From Candidatus Nanohalobium sp. (GTDB lineage Archaea > Nanohalarchaeota > Nanosalinia > Nanosalinales > Nanosalinaceae): a stretch of DNA of 24,133 bases. Under the pieces are notes generated by a model. That model ran no database searches. It saw nothing but the letters and a program-made list of their open reading frames with translations, and was not told the origin of the DNA. Position numbers and translations under genes: made by a program. This document shows, one piece after another, positions 2,425-22,410 of the stretch. The stretch is taken from assembly GCA_042217545.1 (NCBI GenBank), contig JBDGSM010000007.1:1-24133 (forward strand), read 5' to 3'. Within the stretch, counting starts at the first letter, position 1. The number at the start of each line of letters is the position of its first letter.

Positions 2425-4497
2425 TTACTTGCTGTTCGCAACCTTCACCAGGGCTTCGGACAGTCTCTGAACCTTCTCCTGAAGATCCCTGAACTCATCC
2501 CGCGAAACATTTTCACCGGAATCAACCTCCTCCTCAACGCTCTCAACACGGTCGCTCACATCGGAAAAGTCGGAAACAAGTTCGTTAACCTGCTCCTCAA
2601 GCTTTTCAATATCCGAGGCCCTATCACCCTGCTCAGATCTCATTTCCTCGACCTCGCTCTTCACATCGGAGAGCTTCTCGAAGTTCTCAGTAACGTCTTT
2701 TTCAAGGCCTTCGACCTGGCCAGCGTTCTCATCCTGTTTGTCGTCCATCTGCTCCAGGCTATCCCAAAGCGAACGGATCTCCGACTTCGAAGCAAGCTGC
2801 TCCTGGGCCCTGTGCCTTGACTCAGCGATTCTGACGCCCATTTCCTCTCTAACATCGTCCAGGGCTCTCTCGAGCTCTGAGGCCTCGATCTTGTCCTCAA
2901 TCTCCGCTTTCTTGAACTCATCCCGGTCAAGCTTTCCTTCACGGAGCTCGTCAAGAGACTTCTCCTTCTCCTCGAACCGCTCCTCAAGCTTTTCAATATC
3001 GTTAAAGGCCTCCTCCAGTGCAGGAAGCACCTGTTCGACCTCCTCGGTCTTCTCCTCGATCTCGTCCTGCAGGCCATCAAGCTGATCTGAAAGCCGTGAA
3101 ACCCTGTCCCCAAGGCCTTCTATACTCTCTGCTTTTTGCTGGAACTCCTCCTGCGAGACCTTGCCCTGCTGTTCCTCACGGATCTCCTTCAGTACCTCGG
3201 CCTTCTCGTCCAGCTTTTCCTGGAGCCGGGAGACATCCGAGTCAACGTCCGAGATCTGGCCTTCAGCCGATTCTATCTCCTCCAGGGCCTCGTCATGCCT
3301 GTCCTCCAGCAGCTCCATGGAGTCCCAAAGCGAACGGATCTCCGACTTCGAAGCAAGCTGCTCCTGGGCCCTGTGCCTTGACTCAGCGATTCTGACGCCC
3401 ATTTCCTCTCTAACATCGTCCAGGGCTCTCTCGAGCTCTGAGGCCTCGATCTTGTCCTCAATCTCCGCTTTCTTGAACTCATCCCGGTCAAGCTTTCCTT
3501 CACGGAGCTCGTCAAGAGACTTCTCCTTCTCCTCGAACCGCTCCTCAAGCTTTTCAATATCCGAGGCCCTATCACCCTGCTCAGATCTCATTTCCTCGAC
3601 CTCGCTCTTCACATCGGAGAGCTTCTCGAAGTTCTCAGTAACGTCTTTTTCAAGGCCTTCGACCTGGCCAGCGTTCTCATCCTGTTTGTCGTCCATCTGC
3701 TCCAGGCTATCCCAAAGCGAACGGATCTCCGACTTCGAAGCAAGCTGTTCTCGAAGCCTGTGTTCTGTTTCAAGTATGCTTACGCCGATCTCGTCTTTCA
3801 GCTCATCCAGCTCCTGCTCAAGTTCGGAACCGTCGACTTTTTCACTTACAGAAAGTTTTTTCACGCGATCACGGATGCGGGAAAGCTCCACTATCTGGTC
3901 TCCACGCACCTGCTCAAGCCTCTGCTCAAACCGGGATCTGTCAACCTTTTCCTCGATCTCCGAATCCTTCAGCTCCCGTCCCATGTCAGAAAGGCTGTGA
4001 TCCATATCCTCCATCCGGGCCTTCAGCTTCTGGATCTCCTCCTCACGTTCCTGGAAAGTATCAATCCTGTCCTGTATATCCTCAACGTCCTCCTCAGTAA
4101 CTATAGAACTGTTTTCAATCTCCTCAATATCGTCGAAAGCAGCCTCAACCGTCGGAAGAAGCTCCTCAATCCGTTCACGTTTATCCTCGAACTCTTCAAC
4201 CATATCGCTGAACTCGTAATCCTTCGGCAGAGAACTGTAGTCAATCTTCAGATCGGAGACATCCTTTCTCAGGTCATTGACCTCTTCAAGAAGCTCCTCC
4301 TGCCTCTCCTTAACCTCACTATCCTCCGAGTTATCGTACTGATTCAGACGATATTCAAGCTTGGAAACTCGGTTCAGAAGCTCCTGGATCTTCGACTCCT
4401 CATCTCTGATCTCGCCTTCATACTTTTCGGCGTTATCCTTGGTCTCTGCGACCGCATCACTCACCGAGTCCTCAACGTCAGAGTTCAGCAATCCCAT
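2425..4497 (-). CDS. Long acidic coiled-coil protein with internal repeats
   Basis: About 690 aa of E/K/L heptads; no Walker A motif, no TM segment. ATG 4497 (MGLLNSD) chosen, with TTTAAA (4528-4533) about 30 nt upstream. Confidence 0.85.
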   Translation of the reverse strand: MGLLNSDVEDSVSDAVAETKDNAEKYEGEIRDEESKIQELLNRVSKLEYRLNQYDNSEDSEVKERQEELLEEVNDLRKDVSDLKIDYSSLPKDYEFSDMVEEFEDKRERIEELLPTVEAAFDDIEEIENSSIVTEEDVEDIQDRIDTFQEREEEIQKLKARMEDMDHSLSDMGRELKDSEIEEKVDRSRFEQRLEQVRGDQIVELSRIRDRVKKLSVSEKVDGSELEQELDELKDEIGVSILETEHRLREQLASKSEIRSLWDSLEQMDDKQDENAGQVEGLEKDVTENFEKLSDVKSEVEEMRSEQGDRASDIEKLEERFEEKEKSLDELREGKLDRDEFKKAEIEDKIEASELERALDDVREEMGVRIAESRHRAQEQLASKSEIRSLWDSMELLEDRHDEALEEIESAEGQISDVDSDVSRLQEKLDEKAEVLKEIREEQQGKVSQEEFQQKAESIEGLGDRVSRLSDQLDGLQDEIEEKTEEVEQVLPALEEAFNDIEKLEERFEEKEKSLDELREGKLDRDEFKKAEIEDKIEASELERALDDVREEMGVRIAESRHRAQEQLASKSEIRSLWDSLEQMDDKQDENAGQVEGLEKDVTENFEKLSDVKSEVEEMRSEQGDRASDIEKLEEQVNELVSDFSDVSDRVESVEEEVDSGENVSRDEFRDLQEKVQRLSEALVKVANSK
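2592..3747. repeat. Intragenic exact repeats: A (2592-2799 = 3540-3747, 208 bp) and B (2762-3000 = 3323-3561, 239 bp)
   Basis: Base-by-base comparison by eye. Offsets of 948 and 561 bp are both multiples of 3. Confidence 0.9.
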
Positions 4498-4541
4498 GGA
4501 ATCAAGTAACAATTACGTGAAGCCGAGTTTAAAATGTAACC

Positions 4542-6537: not shown

Positions 6538-6747
6538 GCCTCGTTGGCTCAGCTTGGCTAGAGCGGTCCCCTCGTAGGCGTGGTTAGTGCATCTTCCTTC
6601 AGGGAAGCATGCTTTGAGCAGGTCAACTTCCTAAGGAAGTAGACTGCGATGCTCGAGCCGGACGCAACAGGTCATGCCTCCGGCATCGCTTACAGGCAAC
6701 TACGTTGAGTTAGGGACAGGTCCCGGGTTCAAATCCCGGACGGGGCT
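6538..6747 (+). tRNA. tRNA-Thr(CGT) with a 135-nt intron at 37/38 (exon 1 6538-6576, intron 6577-6711, exon 2 6712-6747)
   Basis: Acceptor stem GCCTCGT/ACGGGGC, D arm GCTC..GAGC, anticodon stem GTCCC/GGGAC around CT-CGT-A^A, T arm CCGGG-TTCAAAT-CCCGG, discriminator U. Canonical BHB: CUCG/UGAG helix with UAG and UUA bulges. Confidence 0.95.
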
Positions 6748-6815
6748 CTCACCCATTACAGTCTCTAAGCCCTTTCTGGCGAGATAGCTGATCCTTGTTA
6801 GAAAAAATTTGTTAC

Positions 6816-9967: not shown

Positions 9968-10211
9968 CGTAATTTTTCAACCTCTTTTCGAACTCCTGTT
10001 TATCCATATCCAGTTTCAGCTTTTTACGTCTGGACCTGTGCCCCGAAATGATGGCAGGCCTCTCTCCGGTGATCTCCTCCACACGCCGAACAAGCTCCGA
10101 ATTAGCCCTGCCCCGCGAGGCCTCCGACTCCAGGAAGAACAGCGGAAAATCCCCTAACTCCACAGAGAACTCCTCGCATTCAGGCCTCACCTTGACGTAT
10201 ACCTCGCCCAC
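9960..10211 (-). CDS. DUF167 / UPF0235 (YggU-like) protein
   Basis: VKVRP...GRANSELV...IISGHRSRRK. GTG 10211 is preceded by GGAGGTG (10220-10226); the stop overlaps the dnaG start. Confidence 0.85.
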   Translation of the reverse strand: MGEVYVKVRPECEEFSVELGDFPLFFLESEASRGRANSELVRRVEEITGERPAIISGHRSRRKKLKLDMDKQEFEKRLKNYDG

Positions 10212-10243
10212 TGGAAAAACACCTCCTAAGTGAAAAACAGGGA

Positions 10244-10319
10244 TTTGGCTGCCCGGTAACACACGCAATCATTCCGGGTCCCTTTTCCGGTCATCCGTGC
10301 TGACCAAAGGGCAGCCAAA
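10244..10319 (-). ncRNA. Candidate structured ncRNA or 5' leader (three-way junction)
   Basis: Closing stem UUUGGCUG/CAGCCAAA, two inner hairpins with complementary loops, upstream TATA-like box (10351-10360) and downstream T-tract. Confidence 0.5.
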
Positions 10320-10366
10320 AAATACTAGCCCATATACTCCTTTGACGGGTTAAACTTATACCGGTT

Positions 10367-11026
10367 TCACTGGAAGAAGATCCCTTCCTCTAGGTCCGGT
10401 TCGAAGTGGGCCTGGCGTGTCTTGGTCTGGGTCGGCTCCTCACCGTGATACTTCCTTACGTACCTGACGTACTCCATCATCTTCTCTCGAGCGTACTCGC
10501 CGTCGTACTCTATCATCTCCTTACCGATATACTTCATGAAAGCCCATCTGAAGAACCTGTTCAGAGGCCTCGCCACAAGTCTTGGAAGGAAGTCGATTCC
10601 CTGAGGCATATCATACTTCATCTCAACTCTTGACCAGTACTCCACCAGGCAGAAATTATTCTCCCCTGACGGAGCGGACTTGGTCCTGATCCTTGGCTTG
10701 ATCCTGTAACTGCCCCGGCCACTCGGCAGAGGCATCTCACAGAGCATTGTCGACTCGAACTGATTGCTGTCAACGTTCTGGTAGTAGTACTTCTCGAAAG
10801 GCCTTGTCATATTCATGTTCTCCTTCATAAGGTACTTGTGCTCCTCGTAGATAGTCGGAACATTCGGCGACTCGTACCAGTCCAGGCGGTTCACTAGCTC
10901 CACCCATCCACCGTCAAAGATATGGATGTCGCTCCAGATATTGTCGTCCTCGTCTTCATCCGGTTCAGGCGTCCTGAACCAGTACGCAACTTTTTCCACA
11001 AAATCTTCGTCATCGTGGTCGCTCAC
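10367..11026 (-). CDS. Hypothetical protein, paralogue 3 of a tandem family
   Basis: 219 aa, GTG start with GAGGTGA SD; shares EKYY.VD and the C-terminal helical pattern with its neighbours. Confidence 0.8.
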   Translation of the reverse strand: MSDHDDEDFVEKVAYWFRTPEPDEDEDDNIWSDIHIFDGGWVELVNRLDWYESPNVPTIYEEHKYLMKENMNMTRPFEKYYYQNVDSNQFESTMLCEMPLPSGRGSYRIKPRIRTKSAPSGENNFCLVEYWSRVEMKYDMPQGIDFLPRLVARPLNRFFRWAFMKYIGKEMIEYDGEYAREKMMEYVRYVRKYHGEEPTQTKTRQAHFEPDLEEGIFFQ

Positions 11027-11660: not shown

Positions 11661-11806
11661 TCAGGCCTCCAGTGTCTCACCAATCCCACTGCCAGACGAA
11701 GCATTCGAAGCTCGATAGAGCTTCTGCATGTCCAGAAAATCTCTTAGAGATTTTCGAGCAGTTGGACAGTTCTCGTTTTCCATGATTTTCAGGCCTCCAG
11801 TGTCTC
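11661..11806. mobile_element. 110-bp hairpin-rich insert (11679-11788) flanked by an 18-bp direct repeat; MITE-like; holds a 40-aa ORF at 11661-11783(-)
   Basis: TCAGGCCTCCAGTGTCTC at 11661-11678 and 11789-11806; perfect hairpins at 11707-11724 and 11735-11755. Mobility is inferred. Confidence 0.6.
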
Positions 11807-12912: not shown

Positions 12913-15900
12913 TTACCCTGCGAACTGTCCAAGGCCTGTCTGGCGCTGATCCTTGCCGAACAGGCTCTGCAGGGTCTTGTTCAGCATCAGCACCTGCTGG
13001 CGCAGATACGGCGTAATCTCATACTCATTGATGATCTCCTTCGACGGCTGCATATACTTCTTGATAGTTCCCTCAGAAATCGTCAGCAGCACCTTGCCCC
13101 CGCACTCCGGACATTCCGCGGTCTCCTTGCCTGAAGGCGCGATCGTCTGCTGTGTCATCGGAACACGCCTGAACTTCTCGTTACAGTCAACACAACGCAT
13201 CTCCTGGCTGGAAAAGCTTCTCAGGTTACCTCTGATATCCGGAAGGAAGTGCTTCTGTAGCAGGAGCTCCGCGACCTTGTCCTCATCCACCGCTTTCAAT
13301 TTCTCACCAAGGCCTAACTGCGCAGAGGTCTTCTCACTCATCTCATCCAGCGTAACGTACTCCGACTGATTAGGCCCGTTCTCAACACTGGTCGATTCAT
13401 GAGTGAAACCATGCCTGTACGGCTCATCACTGTGAACGATGTCCTCGCCGATCTGGATCTCGTTGTCCAGGTTCCACGGCTTCTTGTACTCCTGCGTCTC
13501 CTCGTAGAAACCGAGAGGATATTCATCCACCGTTTCGATAGCCCAGGCCTCATCATCGATCTCGTCAGCGTTCAAAACAGTTGAAAGGATCAGAGGAGCG
13601 TCCATCGTGTTGTGAGCGAATACAGGATGCGGGCCGCAGAGGAAGTTCTGGTTCCCCGGCACTTCCAGATCATACACGTAGTCATCGCCGTAATCCCTCT
13701 TCTCCACCTCTTTAACACGTTCAACAGATATATCTCCCCTAACCGGCTTCTCCAGCGAGTCAAGGCCTTTACCGTAAAGTTCCTCTACTCTCTGTTTGGA
13801 GGCAGTTTTCATCCTGTCGTTCTTCCTGTCATTGGAGAAAGACTGCTTTATCTCCTTGTAGTCGGCGCCGTCGGCTCTCAGAGCTTCTCTTCCTTCATCC
13901 AGCACGTTCCATAGAGGCCAGTAAGGATCCTTGTCAGTCCATTCCGAGTAGAGGACCTCCCAGGTCTCGCCCGCCTTCCGGGTTGAAGACTTGAAGCCCA
14001 GTTTCCTGACAAGTAGAGAGAGCTGTGTGGCCATCTCTCCACTCTTGGTGTAGAGCTTGGAGAAACCTTTCTCCTCGTAGATAGAGCCGTCTCCAGCCCG
14101 GTAGGCCTGTACGAACTCCTCTACTTTCTCTTCTTCGGCGCCGAACACGAACGAAGGAATGCTTTTTTCGTCGAACTTCTCCCTTTCAAGACCTAGCTCT
14201 TCCAGCGCCCGCATCAGGACCGCAGGAGTATCGACCCAGTAGCACTTCTTTTTTCCTTCTCTGTCGTCTATATGAGTTCTCGGCTCCACACCTGTCAGCT
14301 CACGTATGCAGTGCTCGACGTCTTCTATCACATCTTCATCTGTATTTGTTATCCTTCCCCTGTCCAGGTCGCCCTCTGAAAGCAGGTAGCCCAGCAGGCG
14401 GTAAAGCTCGGCCGAGTTCTCGATGAACCGGTCTACTGGATCTGTATTAGCTCTCAGCCTTACCTTGCAGGAAGGTACGACTCCCACATCCTTGTAGAAC
14501 TCCAGAGGTGCGTCCCTTCTACCTGTCCTGTACCTGTAGATATTGTGTTCTCCGTACTCCTCTTTCACTTCCTCTCCTGCCTCGGCCTTGATCTCCGACT
14601 CCAGTTCCTCGAGCTCTTCCTCAGGAACCTTCACGTAGCATTCATCGTCCGGCAGCAACTCGAAGAGATCGATCTCATCCTCAAGGCCTTCAGCCTCCAG
14701 CTCAGGGTTCGAAGGAACCACTATACAGTCTCCTTCCTCAAGCTCCCTGACAGGCCTTGCCTCTATCTCATCTCCTTCAGTAACGAAAACACTGTGATCG
14801 CCGGTTACAGAGATCTCTCCACGGGAAGTACTGACCTCGAACACTTCCTTATCGTTCTCGTGCCTAATCAGAGCGGAGACATCCCTGAACTCGACGTCGC
14901 CCGAATCTTTATCAAACGAGACAGCCTTGATATCTTCATCAAAGCTTCTATTTACCTCAAACCCATCTTCACGCGTTTCAAAGCCTTCTTCCTCCAGCAC
15001 TTCGTCTATAAGCTCATCCGCTCTCGGAGCCTTGATCTCTCCGTTCCTCTTGACAACAAGCCTCGTATCCCTCGTAATACTCCTCGCTCCCGTCATGTCC
15101 GGGAGATACTTCCTTGAGAAGTTCAGTAATCCGTCCATCATCAAAAGGATAGCGTCCTCGTCGCCGTCAGCGTTCCTCCTCTTCGCTGCATGCCAGTAAG
15201 GATGAGCGTAGATGCCTTTGGCGTCCGTGAAACCTATTATACGGCCCACGGTTCCTCCGGACGTGTGAGGTGCCAGACCTATCACAAGGGAGCCGACAAG
15301 ATCCTGTTTCTCCTCGACATCGTAGTAAGAATCAAGGCCGTAGAACTCCTCCAGCAGCTCATCGACGTAGTTCGCAACTCTCACGAAGTAATCGGAGGCC
15401 TTCAACGTGTTCTCGCCATCAGGTATGACCAGATCCTGAGGCTTCAGCTCCAGAACCTGATCCTCGTTCTCTAGTTCTTCTCCGTTCACGTCCTGTTTGT
15501 AGCCGATCTCCCGCAGCTTCTCGACGGATACATTGATCTCTTTCGGCTTGAAATGGGTCATAGGAATGTCCGAGGCATCGTATCTTACTGTGCCGTCCTT
15601 GTTCGCGTATAGATCGTATTTCTCACGTAGAAGGCCTTTCTCGATAGGTTCCACATGCTTGTGCTTCGATGTCATCCCTCTGAAGGATTTCAGGAGTTCT
15701 GGAGGCTCTCTCATGCCAAGGTTCTCCAGGGCGTCGTCCATCATCTTCCTGACATCGATATCGGTCTCCCTGTACCTGTTCAGCCAGGTACCGCCGCAGT
15801 TACCGCATTTATCCTTTTCCTCCGTGTATTCCTTGCCGCAGTCGCTGCAGACCCAGACAGCTTCCGCAGGAGCGTCGCATTCACGGCAGAAGCTGTAATG

Positions 15901-17883
15901 CGTGATCTCACCACACTCCGTACATCTATTATGAATTATCTGCTCCCGTACAATTCCCTGCTCTCCATGCATTGTCTGCTTGTAGGAAGCGGACAGGTTT
16001 CTCATACGTCCGCCCTCCTGCTTGCCGCAGGGGAACAGAAGCTGTGGATCGCCGTTCAGGGTCCTGCGCTCGGCTTTCTCAGGCCTCCCCATACGTCCTC
16101 CAAGGTAATGCGGTGCCTGATCCCTGACCTCTATACCTGAAACATCCTCTATGAACCCCGGTATATCTGAGGCCTTCTCAACTTCCTCAAGTCTTTCAGT
16201 ATTGTCGTTTTCAAGGTCGAGAACTTTTCTCATCACCGCCATATCGTTTTCCCTGAGCTCGATCTCGCCTTCTTTCTCCCTGTGCTGTACAAGTATATCT
16301 TCCAGGGCCTTTTTCGCCTTCGAGTTCCATTCCTCGTTGCGCAGGGCCTTGTACAGGGCCTTGAACTTTGCTGGAGAGGTCTCTCTCCAGTGGTACGTCC
16401 ACTTGGGATGTAGAGGCATTCCGAGAGCTTCGGATATCTTGAAAGCTTCCTCCGGCGTCGGATCCCGTTCCTCGAAGCTTTTGCCAAGCTTTACATCCTG
16501 CTCTTTCAGCTCCTTATCCAGTTCTTTCTCCCACCATTCGCTTACGTATGGTGAGGGCAGCAGTTTCTTACCGTTCTCCACGAACTCGCCATACGTTACA
16601 AGTATATCGCCGAGGAACAGTATCTCCTCTATATCGTTCTCCAGTTCCTTTGCTTCTTCCCTCGTATCGACTTTTACCACATCTCCGTTCTTCAGACGGG
16701 CTACAGGCGGATGGATGCTGTCGCACGGGCTCCCGACCGTTGCCTTGCCCGGGTACTCCACTTTCATCTGGGTTCCGATCGCGAGGAACCGCTCTGTGAT
16801 CTCCATCGTCGCCGGGTGGAAGCTGGTCGCTGCGAGGCCGTTGGTCCTGCTGTGACCGTACCTCAGGCGGAAACCTCCTTTCCTCCCGGGATGTCCGAAG
16901 ACAGGCCTTCCAGCGGTTAGGGAACCGAGATACTTGTCGCTCGGCGTGTACTTGTCCTTCTCCTCATCGTCCTCTTCTTCATCGTCGCTTCCGGACGAGT
17001 GGAGCTCTTTCTGCAGGTCAAGATATTCTCCTATCCATTCCCAGTGCTCCAGGCCGAACTCCTCGCCCCATTTCTCGATACGTTTCTTGATCTTCGGAGC
17101 TTTCAGCGGTAGGCCGTCCAGGTAGACCAGGCAGAGGCCTCCACGGATCTGGTTCGTGTCAACGCGGTCGAGGTCCTTGTAGTTCGAGACGTCCAGGTCC
17201 TCAGTAGGGCTTCCTGTGACCTCGACAGGAACGTTCTCGGCAATCATCTCTGTCTCCTCCCTCTCCGGCGAATACTGCTTCGCCGTAACCCTGTTAATAT
17301 AGTCATCAACTTCTGTAGAATAACGTTTCACGACAGTATCTGAAGGCTTGAAACGGTCAAGGCCTACGCCGATCCTGACGTAATCGGAAAGCAGGACGGA
17401 CATGGCGCTCGCAGTACCGCCCGCGGATCTGATAGGTCCTGAGTAGTAGACCGCCAGGTACTTACTTCCATCATCGTTCTCACGTACACGGATGTCTCCA
17501 ATACCTTCCAGCGGCGCAGTCGTGATACCCCCCGTCATGTAAGAGACACCTACACGAATACCTGCGTCGCAGGCCTTCTCCACGTCGTCGAAGTCGTAGA
17601 AGTTTCCCTCCGCGATCTCCCGAGCAATAGAGAACGAAACCCTCTCGTCGTTCTTCCCGTACTCGTCCTCAAGCTCCCTGATCCTAGCGGCGACGCCCTG
17701 ATCCTCCAGCTCCGGGAACATCGCCGCGATAACCAGCGAAGAGGCCTTCTCAGGCAGATCTGTGGCTACAGGGATGTCTACCTTGTCTTCAGGATCCTTG
17801 GACTGATCTCTCGCCTTCTCAGCTACATCGTAGGCCTTTTCAGTTTCCTGTGATATTTTTCCAAAGTATTCCTCCGTTTTCAT
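12913..17883 (-). CDS. polC: DNA polymerase D large subunit DP2, intein-containing (about 1165 aa after splicing)
   Basis: APLEGI, GPIRSAGGTA, GGFRLRYG, GRMGRPEKA, GLAPHTS, HAAKRRNxDGDED, MDAPL and Zn-finger clusters. Confidence 0.97.
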   Translation of the reverse strand: MKTEEYFGKISQETEKAYDVAEKARDQSKDPEDKVDIPVATDLPEKASSLVIAAMFPELEDQGVAARIRELEDEYGKNDERVSFSIAREIAEGNFYDFDDVEKACDAGIRVGVSYMTGGITTAPLEGIGDIRVRENDDGSKYLAVYYSGPIRSAGGTASAMSVLLSDYVRIGVGLDRFKPSDTVVKRYSTEVDDYINRVTAKQYSPEREETEMIAENVPVEVTGSPTEDLDVSNYKDLDRVDTNQIRGGLCLVYLDGLPLKAPKIKKRIEKWGEEFGLEHWEWIGEYLDLQKELHSSGSDDEEEDDEEKDKYTPSDKYLGSLTAGRPVFGHPGRKGGFRLRYGHSRTNGLAATSFHPATMEITERFLAIGTQMKVEYPGKATVGSPCDSIHPPVARLKNGDVVKVDTREEAKELENDIEEILFLGDILVTYGEFVENGKKLLPSPYVSEWWEKELDKELKEQDVKLGKSFEERDPTPEEAFKISEALGMPLHPKWTYHWRETSPAKFKALYKALRNEEWNSKAKKALEDILVQHREKEGEIELRENDMAVMRKVLDLENDNTERLEEVEKASDIPGFIEDVSGIEVRDQAPHYLGGRMGRPEKAERRTLNGDPQLLFPCGKQEGGRMRNLSASYKQTMHGEQGIVREQIIHNRCTECGEITHYSFCRECDAPAEAVWVCSDCGKEYTEEKDKCGNCGGTWLNRYRETDIDVRKMMDDALENLGMREPPELLKSFRGMTSKHKHVEPIEKGLLREKYDLYANKDGTVRYDASDIPMTHFKPKEINVSVEKLREIGYKQDVNGEELENEDQVLELKPQDLVIPDGENTLKASDYFVRVANYVDELLEEFYGLDSYYDVEEKQDLVGSLVIGLAPHTSGGTVGRIIGFTDAKGIYAHPYWHAAKRRNADGDEDAILLMMDGLLNFSRKYLPDMTGARSITRDTRLVVKRNGEIKAPRADELIDEVLEEEGFETREDGFEVNRSFDEDIKAVSFDKDSGDVEFRDVSALIRHENDKEVFEVSTSRGEISVTGDHSVFVTEGDEIEARPVRELEEGDCIVVPSNPELEAEGLEDEIDLFELLPDDECYVKVPEEELEELESEIKAEAGEEVKEEYGEHNIYRYRTGRRDAPLEFYKDVGVVPSCKVRLRANTDPVDRFIENSAELYRLLGYLLSEGDLDRGRITNTDEDVIEDVEHCIRELTGVEPRTHIDDREGKKKCYWVDTPAVLMRALEELGLEREKFDEKSIPSFVFGAEEEKVEEFVQAYRAGDGSIYEEKGFSKLYTKSGEMATQLSLLVRKLGFKSSTRKAGETWEVLYSEWTDKDPYWPLWNVLDEGREALRADGADYKEIKQSFSNDRKNDRMKTASKQRVEELYGKGLDSLEKPVRGDISVERVKEVEKRDYGDDYVYDLEVPGNQNFLCGPHPVFAHNTMDAPLILSTVLNADEIDDEAWAIETVDEYPLGFYEETQEYKKPWNLDNEIQIGEDIVHSDEPYRHGFTHESTSVENGPNQSEYVTLDEMSEKTSAQLGLGEKLKAVDEDKVAELLLQKHFLPDIRGNLRSFSSQEMRCVDCNEKFRRVPMTQQTIAPSGKETAECPECGGKVLLTISEGTIKKYMQPSKEIINEYEITPYLRQQVLMLNKTLQSLFGKDQRQTGLGQFAG
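13609..15081 (-). mobile_element. Intein with LAGLIDADG homing endonuclease (491 aa, residues 935-1425 of DP2)
   Basis: N-terminus SITRDTRLVV, block B VTGDHSVF, LAGLIDADG motifs LLGYLLSEG and AYRAGDGSI, block F VYDLEVPGNQNF, C-terminus AHN with +1 Thr. Confidence 0.93.
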
Positions 17884-17884
17884 C

Positions 17885-18682
17885 CTACTCCTGGCCTCCG
17901 TAACGTTTTTTTACAATTTCAAGTATGTCTTTGAACTCTCCTGTCTCCGCGTCAACATTATTGTACTCCACCTGTTCATGGTTCTCCACCATGAATGAAT
18001 TCTCGGCTTTTTCAGCGATATCAACGTCGTTCGCTCCGTTGCCTACGAAAACGATCTTCCGGACTCCTGCTTCCTTCATCTCGTTGAAGGCCTTGCTCTT
18101 ATCATCGGCGTAGACGTCTTTCTCTATAAATTTGAACCTGCCATCGCTGAACTTGAAGGTCCAGCTCGGGACTACAAAGTCTGCATCCAGGTTCCTGGCC
18201 GCTTTACACGACATGCTCTCCGACGTATGGGAGAGAATGCCTACCTTGAAGCCTGACTCCTTGAAAGCCTTCACAAGCTCTGCGCTGCGATCTCTCAAGT
18301 TCAGGAACGACTTGTTGTACCACTCCACAAGGTCTTCCGCGGTCTCATGGTCTGTCTCCTCCAGTAACTTGTTCAGCTGCTGGACGTTCTCCTGCTCGAA
18401 CTCCTCCCGTGAAATCTGTCCGTTCCACCACTTGTCCACGCGTCTGAAGTACTCTTCAGGCGTTTCACCGGCAAGGAGATGGAGTCCGCTCCAGTAGCCA
18501 AGATCCGTCTTTATTTCAAAGCTCTCCCCTTCAAACATCCTGTAAACGTGTTCAGGCCTCGGGTTCGGAGGCACATGCCGGTCACCTGGCTTGAGAGTTC
18601 CCTCTACATCCATGAGAACAACTTTTTTCCCTTCAAAGGCCTTGAAATCTTTTTTTCCCGATAGTACTTCTATATCTTTCAT
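17885..18682 (-). CDS. HAD-superfamily hydrolase (phosphoserine phosphatase-like)
   Basis: Motif I LMDVEGTL, motif II ILS, motif III K, motif IV FVGNGAND. ATG 18682 is preceded by GGAGGTGA. Confidence 0.82.
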   Translation of the reverse strand: MKDIEVLSGKKDFKAFEGKKVVLMDVEGTLKPGDRHVPPNPRPEHVYRMFEGESFEIKTDLGYWSGLHLLAGETPEEYFRRVDKWWNGQISREEFEQENVQQLNKLLEETDHETAEDLVEWYNKSFLNLRDRSAELVKAFKESGFKVGILSHTSESMSCKAARNLDADFVVPSWTFKFSDGRFKFIEKDVYADDKSKAFNEMKEAGVRKIVFVGNGANDVDIAEKAENSFMVENHEQVEYNNVDAETGEFKDILEIVKKRYGGQE

Positions 18683-18848
18683 CAGAACTGTTTCACCTCC
18701 GAACTTCTGAACTCTAAGACTCCTCGAGTCTTCCCCGGCCAGCAACCATAGGTTGCGGGAGTTCGACCATCATAATACATGGCTCGAGAGAGCCATTTCT
18801 TGCGTGCCAACTGAGCGTAACCAGTTGTCATCAGAACTGTTTCACCTC
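18679..18848. mobile_element. 128-bp hairpin-rich insert (18700-18827) flanked by a 21-bp direct repeat; holds a 49-aa ORF at 18682-18831(-)
   Basis: TCATCAGAACTGTTTCACCTC at 18679-18699 and 18828-18848; four hairpins with 6-7 bp perfect stems inside. Mobility is inferred. Confidence 0.6.
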
Positions 18849-20639
18849 TGTGTTCCTGTTCTTGAAGTTTAGTATAGTTACTTTTCCTGGATCTGGCTCG
18901 TGCCCTACACGTTTCTGGAAATCTGTCTGGGCCTGGAACGTCGACGAGCAGATGACGTTCACGCCCTTGTAGCTGCTTACTGCATGGCTGTGGAAGTGAC
19001 CTGAAACCATTACATCCGGCTTCTCCTCGATAACCATGTGATCAGTAGCCTCGGGCGAAAGCATGTTTGTTCCGTACGTCGGCGCAAGATGCCTGCGCTT
19101 CAGAAGATCTATCATAACACGGTCCGGCTCGTCGTAAGCGTGCTCACGAAGCTCCTGAATCTTATCCACGTGATCGTCAAAGCTATAGCCGTGATACATC
19201 AGATGCTTCAGGCCTTTTGACTCGATGCCGTGAAGCCTGACAGTCTGAGGATTCTGGACCCTGTGAACATTATCATATTCAGGAATCCTTGTGAACGCTT
19301 CCCTGGGCAGCCTTGGCTGTGGCTCGGAAAGCCTTGTTATATCGTGGTTGCCCGGTCCTATAATTATCTGTATGTCCTCCGGTATCTTGTCAACCCAGTC
19401 CTCAAACAGTTCGTACTGCTTGTAAATATCGGTTACACGCAGTTCCTCTTCCTGTCCTGGGTAAACGCCCACGCCTTCAACAAGATCGCCTGTGATAACA
19501 AGATAGCCGATCTTCGACGCCGCATCCGTGGAAAGCCACTCGGCAAAACGGTCCAGACGGTCATCAAGAGTATCTATCGATCCAAGGTGTAGATCAGAGA
19601 TGTAAGCCGCCTTGACCTCATCTTCAGTGGAGGCTGTCCTGCCCTGAGGAATAGGAAGGTCAGGCCTCACCACGCTGTTCGCGTAGATGATGTCGCCCCC
19701 CATGCTTCCCTGCACGCCGATCATCTCATCCGGAACAATCAGTTCGCCAGGCCTCTCATCAACAAGGGCCTTGAAAGTCCCTGTCTTGTCCTCAATCTCT
19801 ACTATGTATTTACCTGAGGATGTGGAGTACTTGTCCTTTACAAGGCCTACTGTGGTCGCCTGTTCCCCTTCATCTCTCTTCTCCAGTCTCTTTATGGTTG
19901 TTGCTGACTGAAGCTGCGTTCTCCGGGTAAGAAGCTTTCTCATCCTGTCGTAACGGTCGTTGTAATAGGATAAGAACTCTGGGACGTCTTTTTCTTCTTT
20001 ATTGATATCTGCCTCGTCCATTATCTCGACCTTCGTCCTCAGCTGATCTCTTCTACCTGAATCACGAAGTCTTACAGTTTTCTCTGAGGAGAACTTGGAG
20101 CCTCTGCGGTCGTAAAGCTCCTCCTCTTCCTCGCTCAGATCATTGTTAAGCTTGCTCTCGTCCACTTCTTCATCAAAGTCTTCATCTGTGGAGTCGGTGC
20201 CCTGAGAAGTCTGATCCTGGGAAGGTTCTTCCTGATCCTGTTCAGTATTTCTTTGCTGTTCGGAGGCGTCTTCATCTTCTGAACTATCCGAAACTATAAC
20301 GCTGTCCTCCATCTCCCCCTCCTGTTCAGTAGTTGTACCTTCACTTATTTCAGTCTCGGAAACAGCTTCAGGCGAAGAATCACCGGGCTGTGAAGAAGAT
20401 TCCTGCTCCACCTCTGAGCCTCCACCAGGCCTTGCCTTAACGACCTGCCTCTGCTTGCCCGTGGAGACGTCCTGAGAAAGCTTCTGCCTGAGCCTCTGCA
20501 CCATATCAGCTGAAACATACATCGGAGTGGTGTCAAGCTCTCTGATCAGCTCTACATCTCTCTCAGTCAGTTTCTCTGCTGCTTCTCTTCCCACCATGCA
20601 GCCCTGTTTAGTAAGTTCTTTTACCGCGTTTTCTTCCAT
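18831..20639 (-). CDS. polB: DNA polymerase D small subunit DP1 (proofreading exonuclease)
   Basis: OB fold, then calcineurin-like phosphoesterase motifs ISDLHLGS, GDLVEGVGVYPGQ, PGNHD, YHG, SGHFH, FQAQTDFQ. Confidence 0.96.
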   Translation of the reverse strand: MEENAVKELTKQGCMVGREAAEKLTERDVELIRELDTTPMYVSADMVQRLRQKLSQDVSTGKQRQVVKARPGGGSEVEQESSSQPGDSSPEAVSETEISEGTTTEQEGEMEDSVIVSDSSEDEDASEQQRNTEQDQEEPSQDQTSQGTDSTDEDFDEEVDESKLNNDLSEEEEELYDRRGSKFSSEKTVRLRDSGRRDQLRTKVEIMDEADINKEEKDVPEFLSYYNDRYDRMRKLLTRRTQLQSATTIKRLEKRDEGEQATTVGLVKDKYSTSSGKYIVEIEDKTGTFKALVDERPGELIVPDEMIGVQGSMGGDIIYANSVVRPDLPIPQGRTASTEDEVKAAYISDLHLGSIDTLDDRLDRFAEWLSTDAASKIGYLVITGDLVEGVGVYPGQEEELRVTDIYKQYELFEDWVDKIPEDIQIIIGPGNHDITRLSEPQPRLPREAFTRIPEYDNVHRVQNPQTVRLHGIESKGLKHLMYHGYSFDDHVDKIQELREHAYDEPDRVMIDLLKRRHLAPTYGTNMLSPEATDHMVIEEKPDVMVSGHFHSHAVSSYKGVNVICSSTFQAQTDFQKRVGHEPDPGKVTILNFKNRNTEVKQF

Positions 20640-21931: not shown

Positions 21932-22410
21932 TTTCTACTTGAAACCAAGGTTTATAATCCCTTTCCAATCGAAGTCGGGGTGATTTGGACCCCCACCCCC
22001 TGATTTCGTGTGGAAAACTAATCTGCCCAAAGTTTCTGAGTATAACAGTGTTATATAGTTATAACGTTGTTATACAGTATAGCAGTGTTATATCCGAACT
22101 CCCAGCTCAGAAGCTTTCTTCCACTTGAAACAAAGGGGTGGGCGGCTTCTTCCACAGTAGCTCGAGATCACTGAAACAGCATATTTCCAGCACAGCAGAA
22201 ATCCTTTCCGGCATACGGCTACTTCCGCGAGCAGGCCTACCTGTATAACGCCGTTATACTTTTCTCCTCGGGTCGCAGGAAAAAATCTGGCCGACCGATC
22301 TCCCGCTCCCGAACTCAGAATTTTGTTTTCTCCAGTCGAAGGCCTCAGCTTCCTTCCTCGCATCTACTTCTCGAGCAAAGGCCTTTTCCACCCCCTGATT
22401 TCATGTGGAG
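21932..22410. other. Replication origin (oriC) with ORB elements
   Basis: ORB-like boxes: 22119-22142(+) TTCCACTTGAAACAAAGGGGTGGG; 21990-22015(-) TTCCACACGAAATCAGGGGGTGGGG; 22388-22410(-) CTCCACATGAAATCAGGGGGTGG; mini-ORB 21932-21950 TTTCTACTTGAAACCAAGG. Directly upstream of cdc6, with flanking genes pointing away. Confidence 0.88.
22041..22258. repeat. Four TATAAC-N3-GTTATA palindromes (22041-55, 22060-74, 22078-92 with one mismatch, 22244-58)
   Basis: Read directly from the sequence. Confidence 0.8.

Follow-up and report, generated by a model that had tools for sequence, protein, structure and literature searches.

The 128 nt between the genes for DP1, the small subunit of DNA polymerase D, and a HAD-family hydrolase in genome G000 are, judged by comparison with related genomes, an insertion, and their sequence places them in a modular, dispersed family of archaeal hairpin repeats. 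The preliminary description of this DNA did not recognize the insert as a member of such a family. Because it is one, the ribosome relay proposed there is best read as a condition of survival and not as a purpose-built device. Overall, we consider it rather probable that a family repeat inserted here and that the relay acted as a survival filter.

The source genome, G000, which we take to be that of a nanohaloarchaeon, originated from a salt-lake metagenome, is 1.03 Mb in size, and is 92% complete. The window, meaning the entire 24,133-nt stretch of DNA analyzed, carries on its minus strand cdc6, DP1 (18831–20639; Pfam DNA_pol_E_B), a 265-aa HAD-family hydrolase (17885–18682; Pfam Hydrolase/HAD), and an intein-bearing DP2, the large subunit of DNA polymerase D (12913–17883; Pfam PolC_DP2, Intein_splicing, and LAGLIDADG_3). 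DP1 scored 444.4 bits against the NCBIfam PRK04036 models, for which the cut-off is 445. One nucleotide separates the HAD stop from the DP2 start. The operon had been described as essential, which holds for the downstream DP2; HAD is not a fixed member, as DP1 is followed directly by DP2 in 37 of 51 relatives and by another gene in 14. Elsewhere in the window, near-identical 22-nt repeats upstream of cdc6 (21993–22014 and 22388–22409) resemble origin recognition boxes and likely mark the replication origin. A tRNA-Thr(CGT) gene (6538–6748) contains a 135-nt intron and was detected by ARAGORN only when introns were permitted. An acidic 695-aa protein (2425–4512) has long exact internal repeats in its gene (239 nt, 561 apart). 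Finally, a non-coding stretch at 10211–10367 is mostly kept in G002 (0.81 over the shorter copy), returned no Rfam match at the gathering threshold, and is possibly a structured RNA.

In G001, of the same genus, the DP1-HAD junction is present as a single copy in which the DP1 stop overlaps the HAD start. This is the empty site that the preliminary description had proposed looking for. G002, a sister genome of the same genus, contains the same 149-nt insert as G000. Protein and codon trees of DP1 group G000 with G002 (support of 0.94 and 0.98, respectively), and since the trees pair these genomes, one insertion event explains both. That the two genomes recently exchanged the entire locus is unlikely: the codons directly beside the insert have diverged. 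One contig from each of two runs, 5801 nt for X1 and 5990 nt for X2, spans the insert and both repeats. For neither contig is a difference listed, and neither has a joint that skips the insert; these are contigs rather than reads, and the runs are possibly the source samples of the assembly. Run X3 barely covered the stretch. The pattern for a filled DP1 right junction occurred in 0 metagenome contigs.

The insert is read on the minus strand and is bounded by exact 21-nt repeats at 18679–18699 and 18828–18848, 149 nt apart. Compared with the empty junction, copy 1 (18828–18848) contains the real DP1 end, EVKQF and its stop, followed by an SD-like GAGGTG and the overlapping ATG of the bridge frame. 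Next is hairpin H1 (18808–18827), the conserved 5' module of the family, whose loop holds GGTTACGCTC and whose stem covaries among 137 copies. A conserved linker, GCACGCAAG (18799–18807), leads to hairpin H2 (18779–18796), whose stem varies across the family. The 3' module (18700–18778), delimited by an alignment of family copies, comprises the linker ATTATGATGGT and the arms of H3, CGAACT (18765–18760) and AAGTTCG (18706–18700), which are split here by a nested double hairpin (a, 18742–18756; b, 18716–18732). Both nested hairpins are imperfect in G002. In copy 2 (18679–18699), the G at 18700 completes the SD GGAGGTG, and the bridge stop then overlaps the HAD ATG. The predicted 49-aa bridge frame (18682–18831) reads from 18831 to 18682 with a TGATG overlap at each end. 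The original duplication was probably 24 nt, because copy 1 runs on as ATGACA, as does the HAD start in the empty G001.

These results bear out the anatomy given in the preliminary description, i.e., the duplication, the four hairpins at precisely the coordinates reported there, the pairing that encloses two of them, and the 49-aa frame whose stop overlaps the HAD ATG. All four hairpins are perfect in G000, and 0 of 2000 dinucleotide shuffles contained four such hairpins (mean, 0.13). The enclosing GAACTC/GAGTTC (18709–18714 and 18759–18764) pair in the predicted fold around the hairpins at 18716–18732 and 18742–18756. The total folding energy was unremarkable, with z-scores of -1.0 for 170 nt and -1.7 for 128 nt. 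An Rfam search of the insert returned 0 matches at the gathering threshold (best E, 6.8). A model for sigma-70-type promoters and terminators, which is not archaeal, predicted none, and no TATA-like word or T-run lies inside the insert. The words CTGATGA and ATGATG suggested a hammerhead, an HDV-like/theta ribozyme, or a C/D-box RNA; these were rejected as the required partners are misplaced, judged by eye against their consensus sequences.

The 5' part of the insert recurs in G000 within the introns of tRNA-Trp, tRNA-Glu, and tRNA-Ala and near other tRNA genes. Allowing at most one mismatch, a 13-nt core was present in 49 of 61 genomes, with up to 11 copies per genome; a reversed-core control also matched many of the 61 genomes, at 0–3 per genome, below the motif counts. 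A 25-nt form retrieved 120 stretches from GTDB, all 120 archaeal by title, the titles naming Woesearchaeota, Nanoarchaeia, Nanohaloarchaea, Asbonarchaeum, and uncultured Methanosarcinales (the depositor's label). The compact form of the 3' module was present in 17 of the 61 genomes, compared with 0 for a control pattern. An alignment of 12 copies revealed the order H1, linker, variable H2, linker, and H3; additional pairs of hairpins are nested within H1 or H3. In the 137-copy H1 set, for part of which the selecting pattern itself dictates the inner pairs, one stem pair is T-A in 71 copies and T-G in 64, with no A-C-type swap; this indicates selection of the fold on one strand. In the same set, two bases after the stem repeat two bases of the left arm (AC/AC, GC/GC, AT/AT), which may point to a tertiary contact or to a palindromic site of recognition.

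Target duplications of 12–77 nt were identified in 38 of 149 distinct copies, 19 of these 38 being at tRNA genes; no duplication was detected in the remaining copies. Family copies occur in both orientations and also at gene starts. A 26-nt motif matched 0 viral contigs. The family is undescribed in the literature covered (open-licence PMC and bioRxiv), and the four unassigned ncRNAs in the available portions of PMC10266531, including its supplement, do not contain the motif. In Woesearchaeota-type loci L095, L103, L108, L164, L177, L179, and L181, copies lie in the T-loop region of tRNAs and at other non-canonical positions. In one Woesearchaeota record set (L090, L098, L099, L140, L153, and others), the 5' motif is part of a larger unit (~300 bp) that is multi-copy and has long inverted ends. 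This MITE-like unit is a possible lead to the mobilizer.

The junction was then compared across the 52 genomes in which it was readable (G000 and 51 relatives). Excluded from the counts were L018 and L213, whose contigs end before the junction, spacers shorter than 40 nt, and G032, which appears to have hairpins in frame at a DP2 start that the script left unplaced. By eye, the double hairpin of this last junction (L026) is apparently in frame within the DP2 N-terminus. Family modules were found in nine of the 52 junctions (G000, G002, G006, G042, G046, G047, G054, G062, and G064), corresponding to about eight events as judged by eye and from the empty sisters G012 and G019. For example, G042 is filled and its sister G012 is empty. 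G006 and G042 each have their own DP1 end duplicated, from the same SD boundary, and the 3' module is reversed in G046 and G062. Judged from these junctions, the DP1 end is an insertion hot spot. A copy of the same subfamily precedes another gene in G063, which we take to encode ribosomal protein L10; its frame ends, by eye, in a TAATG overlap. The window itself contains a second insert, at 11661–11806, with an 18-nt duplication (128 apart) and a 40-aa bridge frame; this site is empty in both G001 and G002.

In the explanation we favor, a dispersed archaeal hairpin repeat without an enzyme of its own sits between two copies of the junction. Insertion would have taken place in DNA, either as copying into a staggered break or as template switching, with host repair enzymes. 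Such a process fits better than a cut-and-paste transposase because the duplications are long and variable, the left ends are ragged, both orientations occur, and the family nests within itself. The raggedness amounts to a few extra bases, and nested copies lie in the family's own loops. The repeat likely survives at this site since the old start codon now opens a stop-free frame, which would carry the ribosome through the hairpins onto the HAD start, with termination-reinitiation at both TGATG overlaps. Selection would purge any insert that interrupts the path leading to HAD and DP2, and would later constrain the insert sequence. As for the machinery, searches of the 92% complete G000 found no Y1, no RVT_1 (RT) or Cas_Cas1 of the kind that a retroelement or casposon relic would call for, and no DDE_Tnp_1, and Y1_Tnp was present in 0 of 34 family relatives (3 of 57 overall). 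G000 encodes one XerA-like tyrosine recombinase, which scored below the NCBIfam cut-off. No neighbor protein recurred across the 80 GTDB loci compared (of 120), the largest cluster covering three loci.

The relay claimed in the preliminary description was evaluated using a bridge definition in which the frame starts at -4 to +6 of the upstream stop and stops at -8 to +6 of the next start. These windows were set after the first cases had been seen, and the events have modules in common and are only partly independent. Long DP1-end spacers contained a bridge in five of eight cases, compared with 0.70 expected from shuffles with free length, and in four of seven compared with 0.64 when the G000 case was omitted; the set of eight includes G021 and G031, which were not recognized as family. 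For the G000 insert alone, the chance of a bridge was 0.06–0.14. Genome-wide, using a start window widened to +15 and gene starts from a simple caller, 15 of 30 hairpin-rich spacers contained a bridge versus 4.0 expected, and 15 of 278 other spacers did so versus 15.2 expected. The excesses at the DP1 end and at hairpin-rich spacers lend statistical support to the proposed relay. G000 has at least 13 more hairpin-rich spacers with bridge frames (on C17, C24, C26, C28, C35, C64, and C78), many with their own SD and GGVFE-like ends; these spacers represent a different sub-type from the DP1-HAD insert.

Bridge frames are not universal. Among 11 genomes fetched after the windows had been fixed, one of three long spacers contained a bridge versus 0.63 expected, and the G063 spacer missed the definition by 2 nt. 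Over 404 kb of G002, one of five hairpin spacers contained a bridge. At the junction in that genome, AAG replaces the bridge ATG, and the closest start codon in frame is a TTG lying 20 nt further on. In the inserts of G042, G047, and G064, the overlap lacks a start codon, and several Woesearchaeota copies at gene starts have no bridge. Based on these start-less and bridge-less inserts and on the fractions in the later genomes and in G002, the putative relay is a frequent outcome and not a rule. In all nine family inserts at DP1 ends, a frame runs without a stop to the next start, and four of the nine have no start codon; the corresponding statistic (8/8) carries little weight, its null being high for short spacers (0.10–1.0). 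Nor is it notable that G002 retains an open frame (P about 0.3). An upstream in-frame extension of HAD, which the preliminary description had named as an alternative, is not conserved: a stop cuts it in G002, and it is absent from G001.

Of 211 closely coupled genes, 95 have an SD motif upstream, versus 47 of 467 leading genes, a pattern that the available text of PMC6728339 ties to reinitiation in Haloferax. There, genes further downstream are strictly dependent on coupling, and the SD is not used for fresh initiation. According to the portion of PMC10666635 available, a distance of ~20 nt nearly abolishes coupling in Haloferax.

The bridge peptide is basic in an acidic proteome, as originally noted: its pI is 10.0, compared with a median of 4.7 over 1138 predicted G000 proteins. 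Between G000 and G002, 15 codons of its frame differ so as to alter the amino acid and 2 differ silently, with 11, 8, and 3 changes at codon positions 1, 2, and 3, respectively, and no indels. In G006, the motif falls in a different reading frame. No homologue was found among proteins of 26–86 aa, and the peptide had no Pfam or NCBIfam match. The ratio of changes, the G006 frame, and the absence of a homologue argue that the peptide is not what is selected, in agreement with the preliminary suggestion that the frame does not serve a protein function.

The insert itself is well conserved. It is identical at 107 of 128 positions (84%) between G000 and G002, compared with 48 of 126 four-fold sites in DP1 (38%), and it ranked second among 40 shared spacers (0.83; median, 0.56), which were drawn from 404 of the about 900 kb of G002. 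The top-ranked spacer is a hairpin cassette at G000:C26:27361-27429, with a 20-aa bridge frame, that is identical at all 69 positions in G002 although flanking third codon positions differ. It lies between two genes read as those for ribosomal proteins L11 and L1. Within the DP1-HAD insert, the first 29 nt contain no change, compared with 21 in the other 99 (P = 0.001), and two of the four hairpins are still perfect in G002, the other two stems having decayed. Any one of three processes could account for this conservation: selection in place, homogenization among the copies, or a spread of the allele that carries the insert. The unchanged first 29 nt are not explained by the relay alone.

The leading rival to the reading we favor holds that the insert is a neutral passenger: the duplication restored an SD and a start, HAD is initiated afresh, and the open frame reflects an inherited ATG and a lucky length. 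The complete GGAGGTG in copy 2, the persistence of the G002 insert despite loss of its ATG, three further start-less family inserts, and the chance of 0.06–0.14 for a bridge in the single G000 case are consistent with this. Such a passenger would not, however, account for bridges being in excess at hairpin spacers and not at others, or for conservation far above that of silent sites and of most spacers; moreover, leading genes in this genome are rarely preceded by an SD. We consider a passenger unlikely, though it deserves more credence than any other rival. A domesticated regulatory element, in which H1 with its linker and the hairpin abutting the SD form an RNA switch or protein site that tunes HAD and DP2 and is melted by the ribosome, would account for the invariant 5' end, for H1 covariation indicating strand-specific pairing, and for a second cassette identical between two species. 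Nevertheless, conservation of the motif is just as strong in tRNA introns and flanks, so it may be a mobility signal of the family or have been homogenized among copies; only two of the four hairpins are perfect in G002, and most relatives have no insert at this site. This possibility appears distinctly less probable than a passenger. A broader scenario is slightly more plausible but still doubtful: an enzyme-less element across DPANN would supply tRNA introns and would have been repeatedly domesticated as a conserved control cassette at operon junctions, with a host factor reading the invariant H1-CACGCAA and ribosomes crossing even without a canonical start.

The other alternatives are much weaker. 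As family copies form tRNA introns, which must be spliced, the insert might be excised from the mRNA as an intron by the tRNA splicing endonuclease. A test of limited power, which recovered the Trp control and missed the Ala control (1/2), found no strict bulge-helix-bulge at the ends of the inserts in G000, G002, G006, and G042, and splicing would render the duplication and the bridge unnecessary; we regard an mRNA intron as very improbable. Still less probable is a functional 49-aa basic protein. Its frame is open in both sister genomes and free of indels, but the predominance of amino-acid-changing substitutions and their spread over codon positions, the lost G002 start, the different G006 frame, and the lack of a homologue all oppose such a role. 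Least credible of all is an assembly artefact around the 21-mer. Twenty-one is a common assembler word length, and other repeats of this assembly flank N-gaps; however, the X1 and X2 contigs span the insert unchanged, and the orthologous insert in G002, with its 21 substitutions, refutes an artefact.

Several known systems resemble the insert in part. Mycobacterial interspersed repetitive units (MIRUs) are short, apparently mobile repeats found at operon start codons, whose overlapping frame is thought to preserve coupling (available portions of PMC12548453 and PMC3184786). Like them, the insert is short, multi-copy, apparently mobile, and without its own enzyme, has filled and empty sites, and landed at a start codon in an operon, where its frame overlaps the neighboring genes in G000, though not in the sister G002. 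It differs in being archaeal, in having a duplication of 21–24 nt versus 4 in MIRU, in taking its stop, SD, and start from the duplicated target with -1 overlaps, where MIRU has a built-in -4 overlap, and in belonging to a modular, self-nesting family mostly found in or beside tRNA genes; the two are set apart on these features and not by sequence comparison. By analogy, then, the insert would work like a MIRU and is not one. With MITEs, as portrayed in the available part of PMC3184786, it shares a length below 200 bp, the absence of an encoded transposase, a target duplication, and folding into stems. Unlike MITEs, it has no terminal inverted repeats, its ends CAACTGG and AAGTTCG matching at a few bases at most by eye, and the duplication length is not fixed (12–77 nt). 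DDE_Tnp_1, the one DDE family in the G000 search, was not found in that 92% complete genome, and one Woesearchaeon has the motif within a larger inverted-ended unit.

REP, BIME, and REPIN elements are modular hairpins associated with RAYT Y1 transposases. The insert resembles them, as far as the consulted portion of PMC3184786 describes them, in its modular hairpins, a conserved short motif beside a stem, and strand-specific pairing; it differs in its long duplications and in the absence of Y1_Tnp from G000 and the 34 family relatives. The bridge also shares TGATG and an upstream SD with the termination-reinitiation reported at -1/-4 overlaps in Haloferax volcanii (available text of PMC6728339 and PMC10666635). 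That organism is a haloarchaeon and not a nanohaloarchaeon, and here the insert makes the coupled upstream frame. For archaeal tRNA introns, the route of arrival is described as open in the accessible part of an Asgard study (bioRxiv 10.64898/2026.10.13.758758). The present family similarly has copies at several tRNA intron positions; where that part of the study reports no shared donor family, one motif recurs here across tRNA types and beyond. In the DP1-HAD copy, no strict bulge-helix-bulge splice motif was found at the ends.

The logic of the MIRU is already known; the archaeal family, its long and variable duplications, the tRNA link, and the unexpected conservation are absent from the literature covered (open-licence PMC and bioRxiv). 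This family also occupies tRNA introns, and how such introns arrived is a question that a 2026 preprint, in its accessible part, calls open. Finally, a single junction struck independently about eight times within one family of tiny archaea amounts to a natural experiment on what an insert has to retain to survive in an essential operon.
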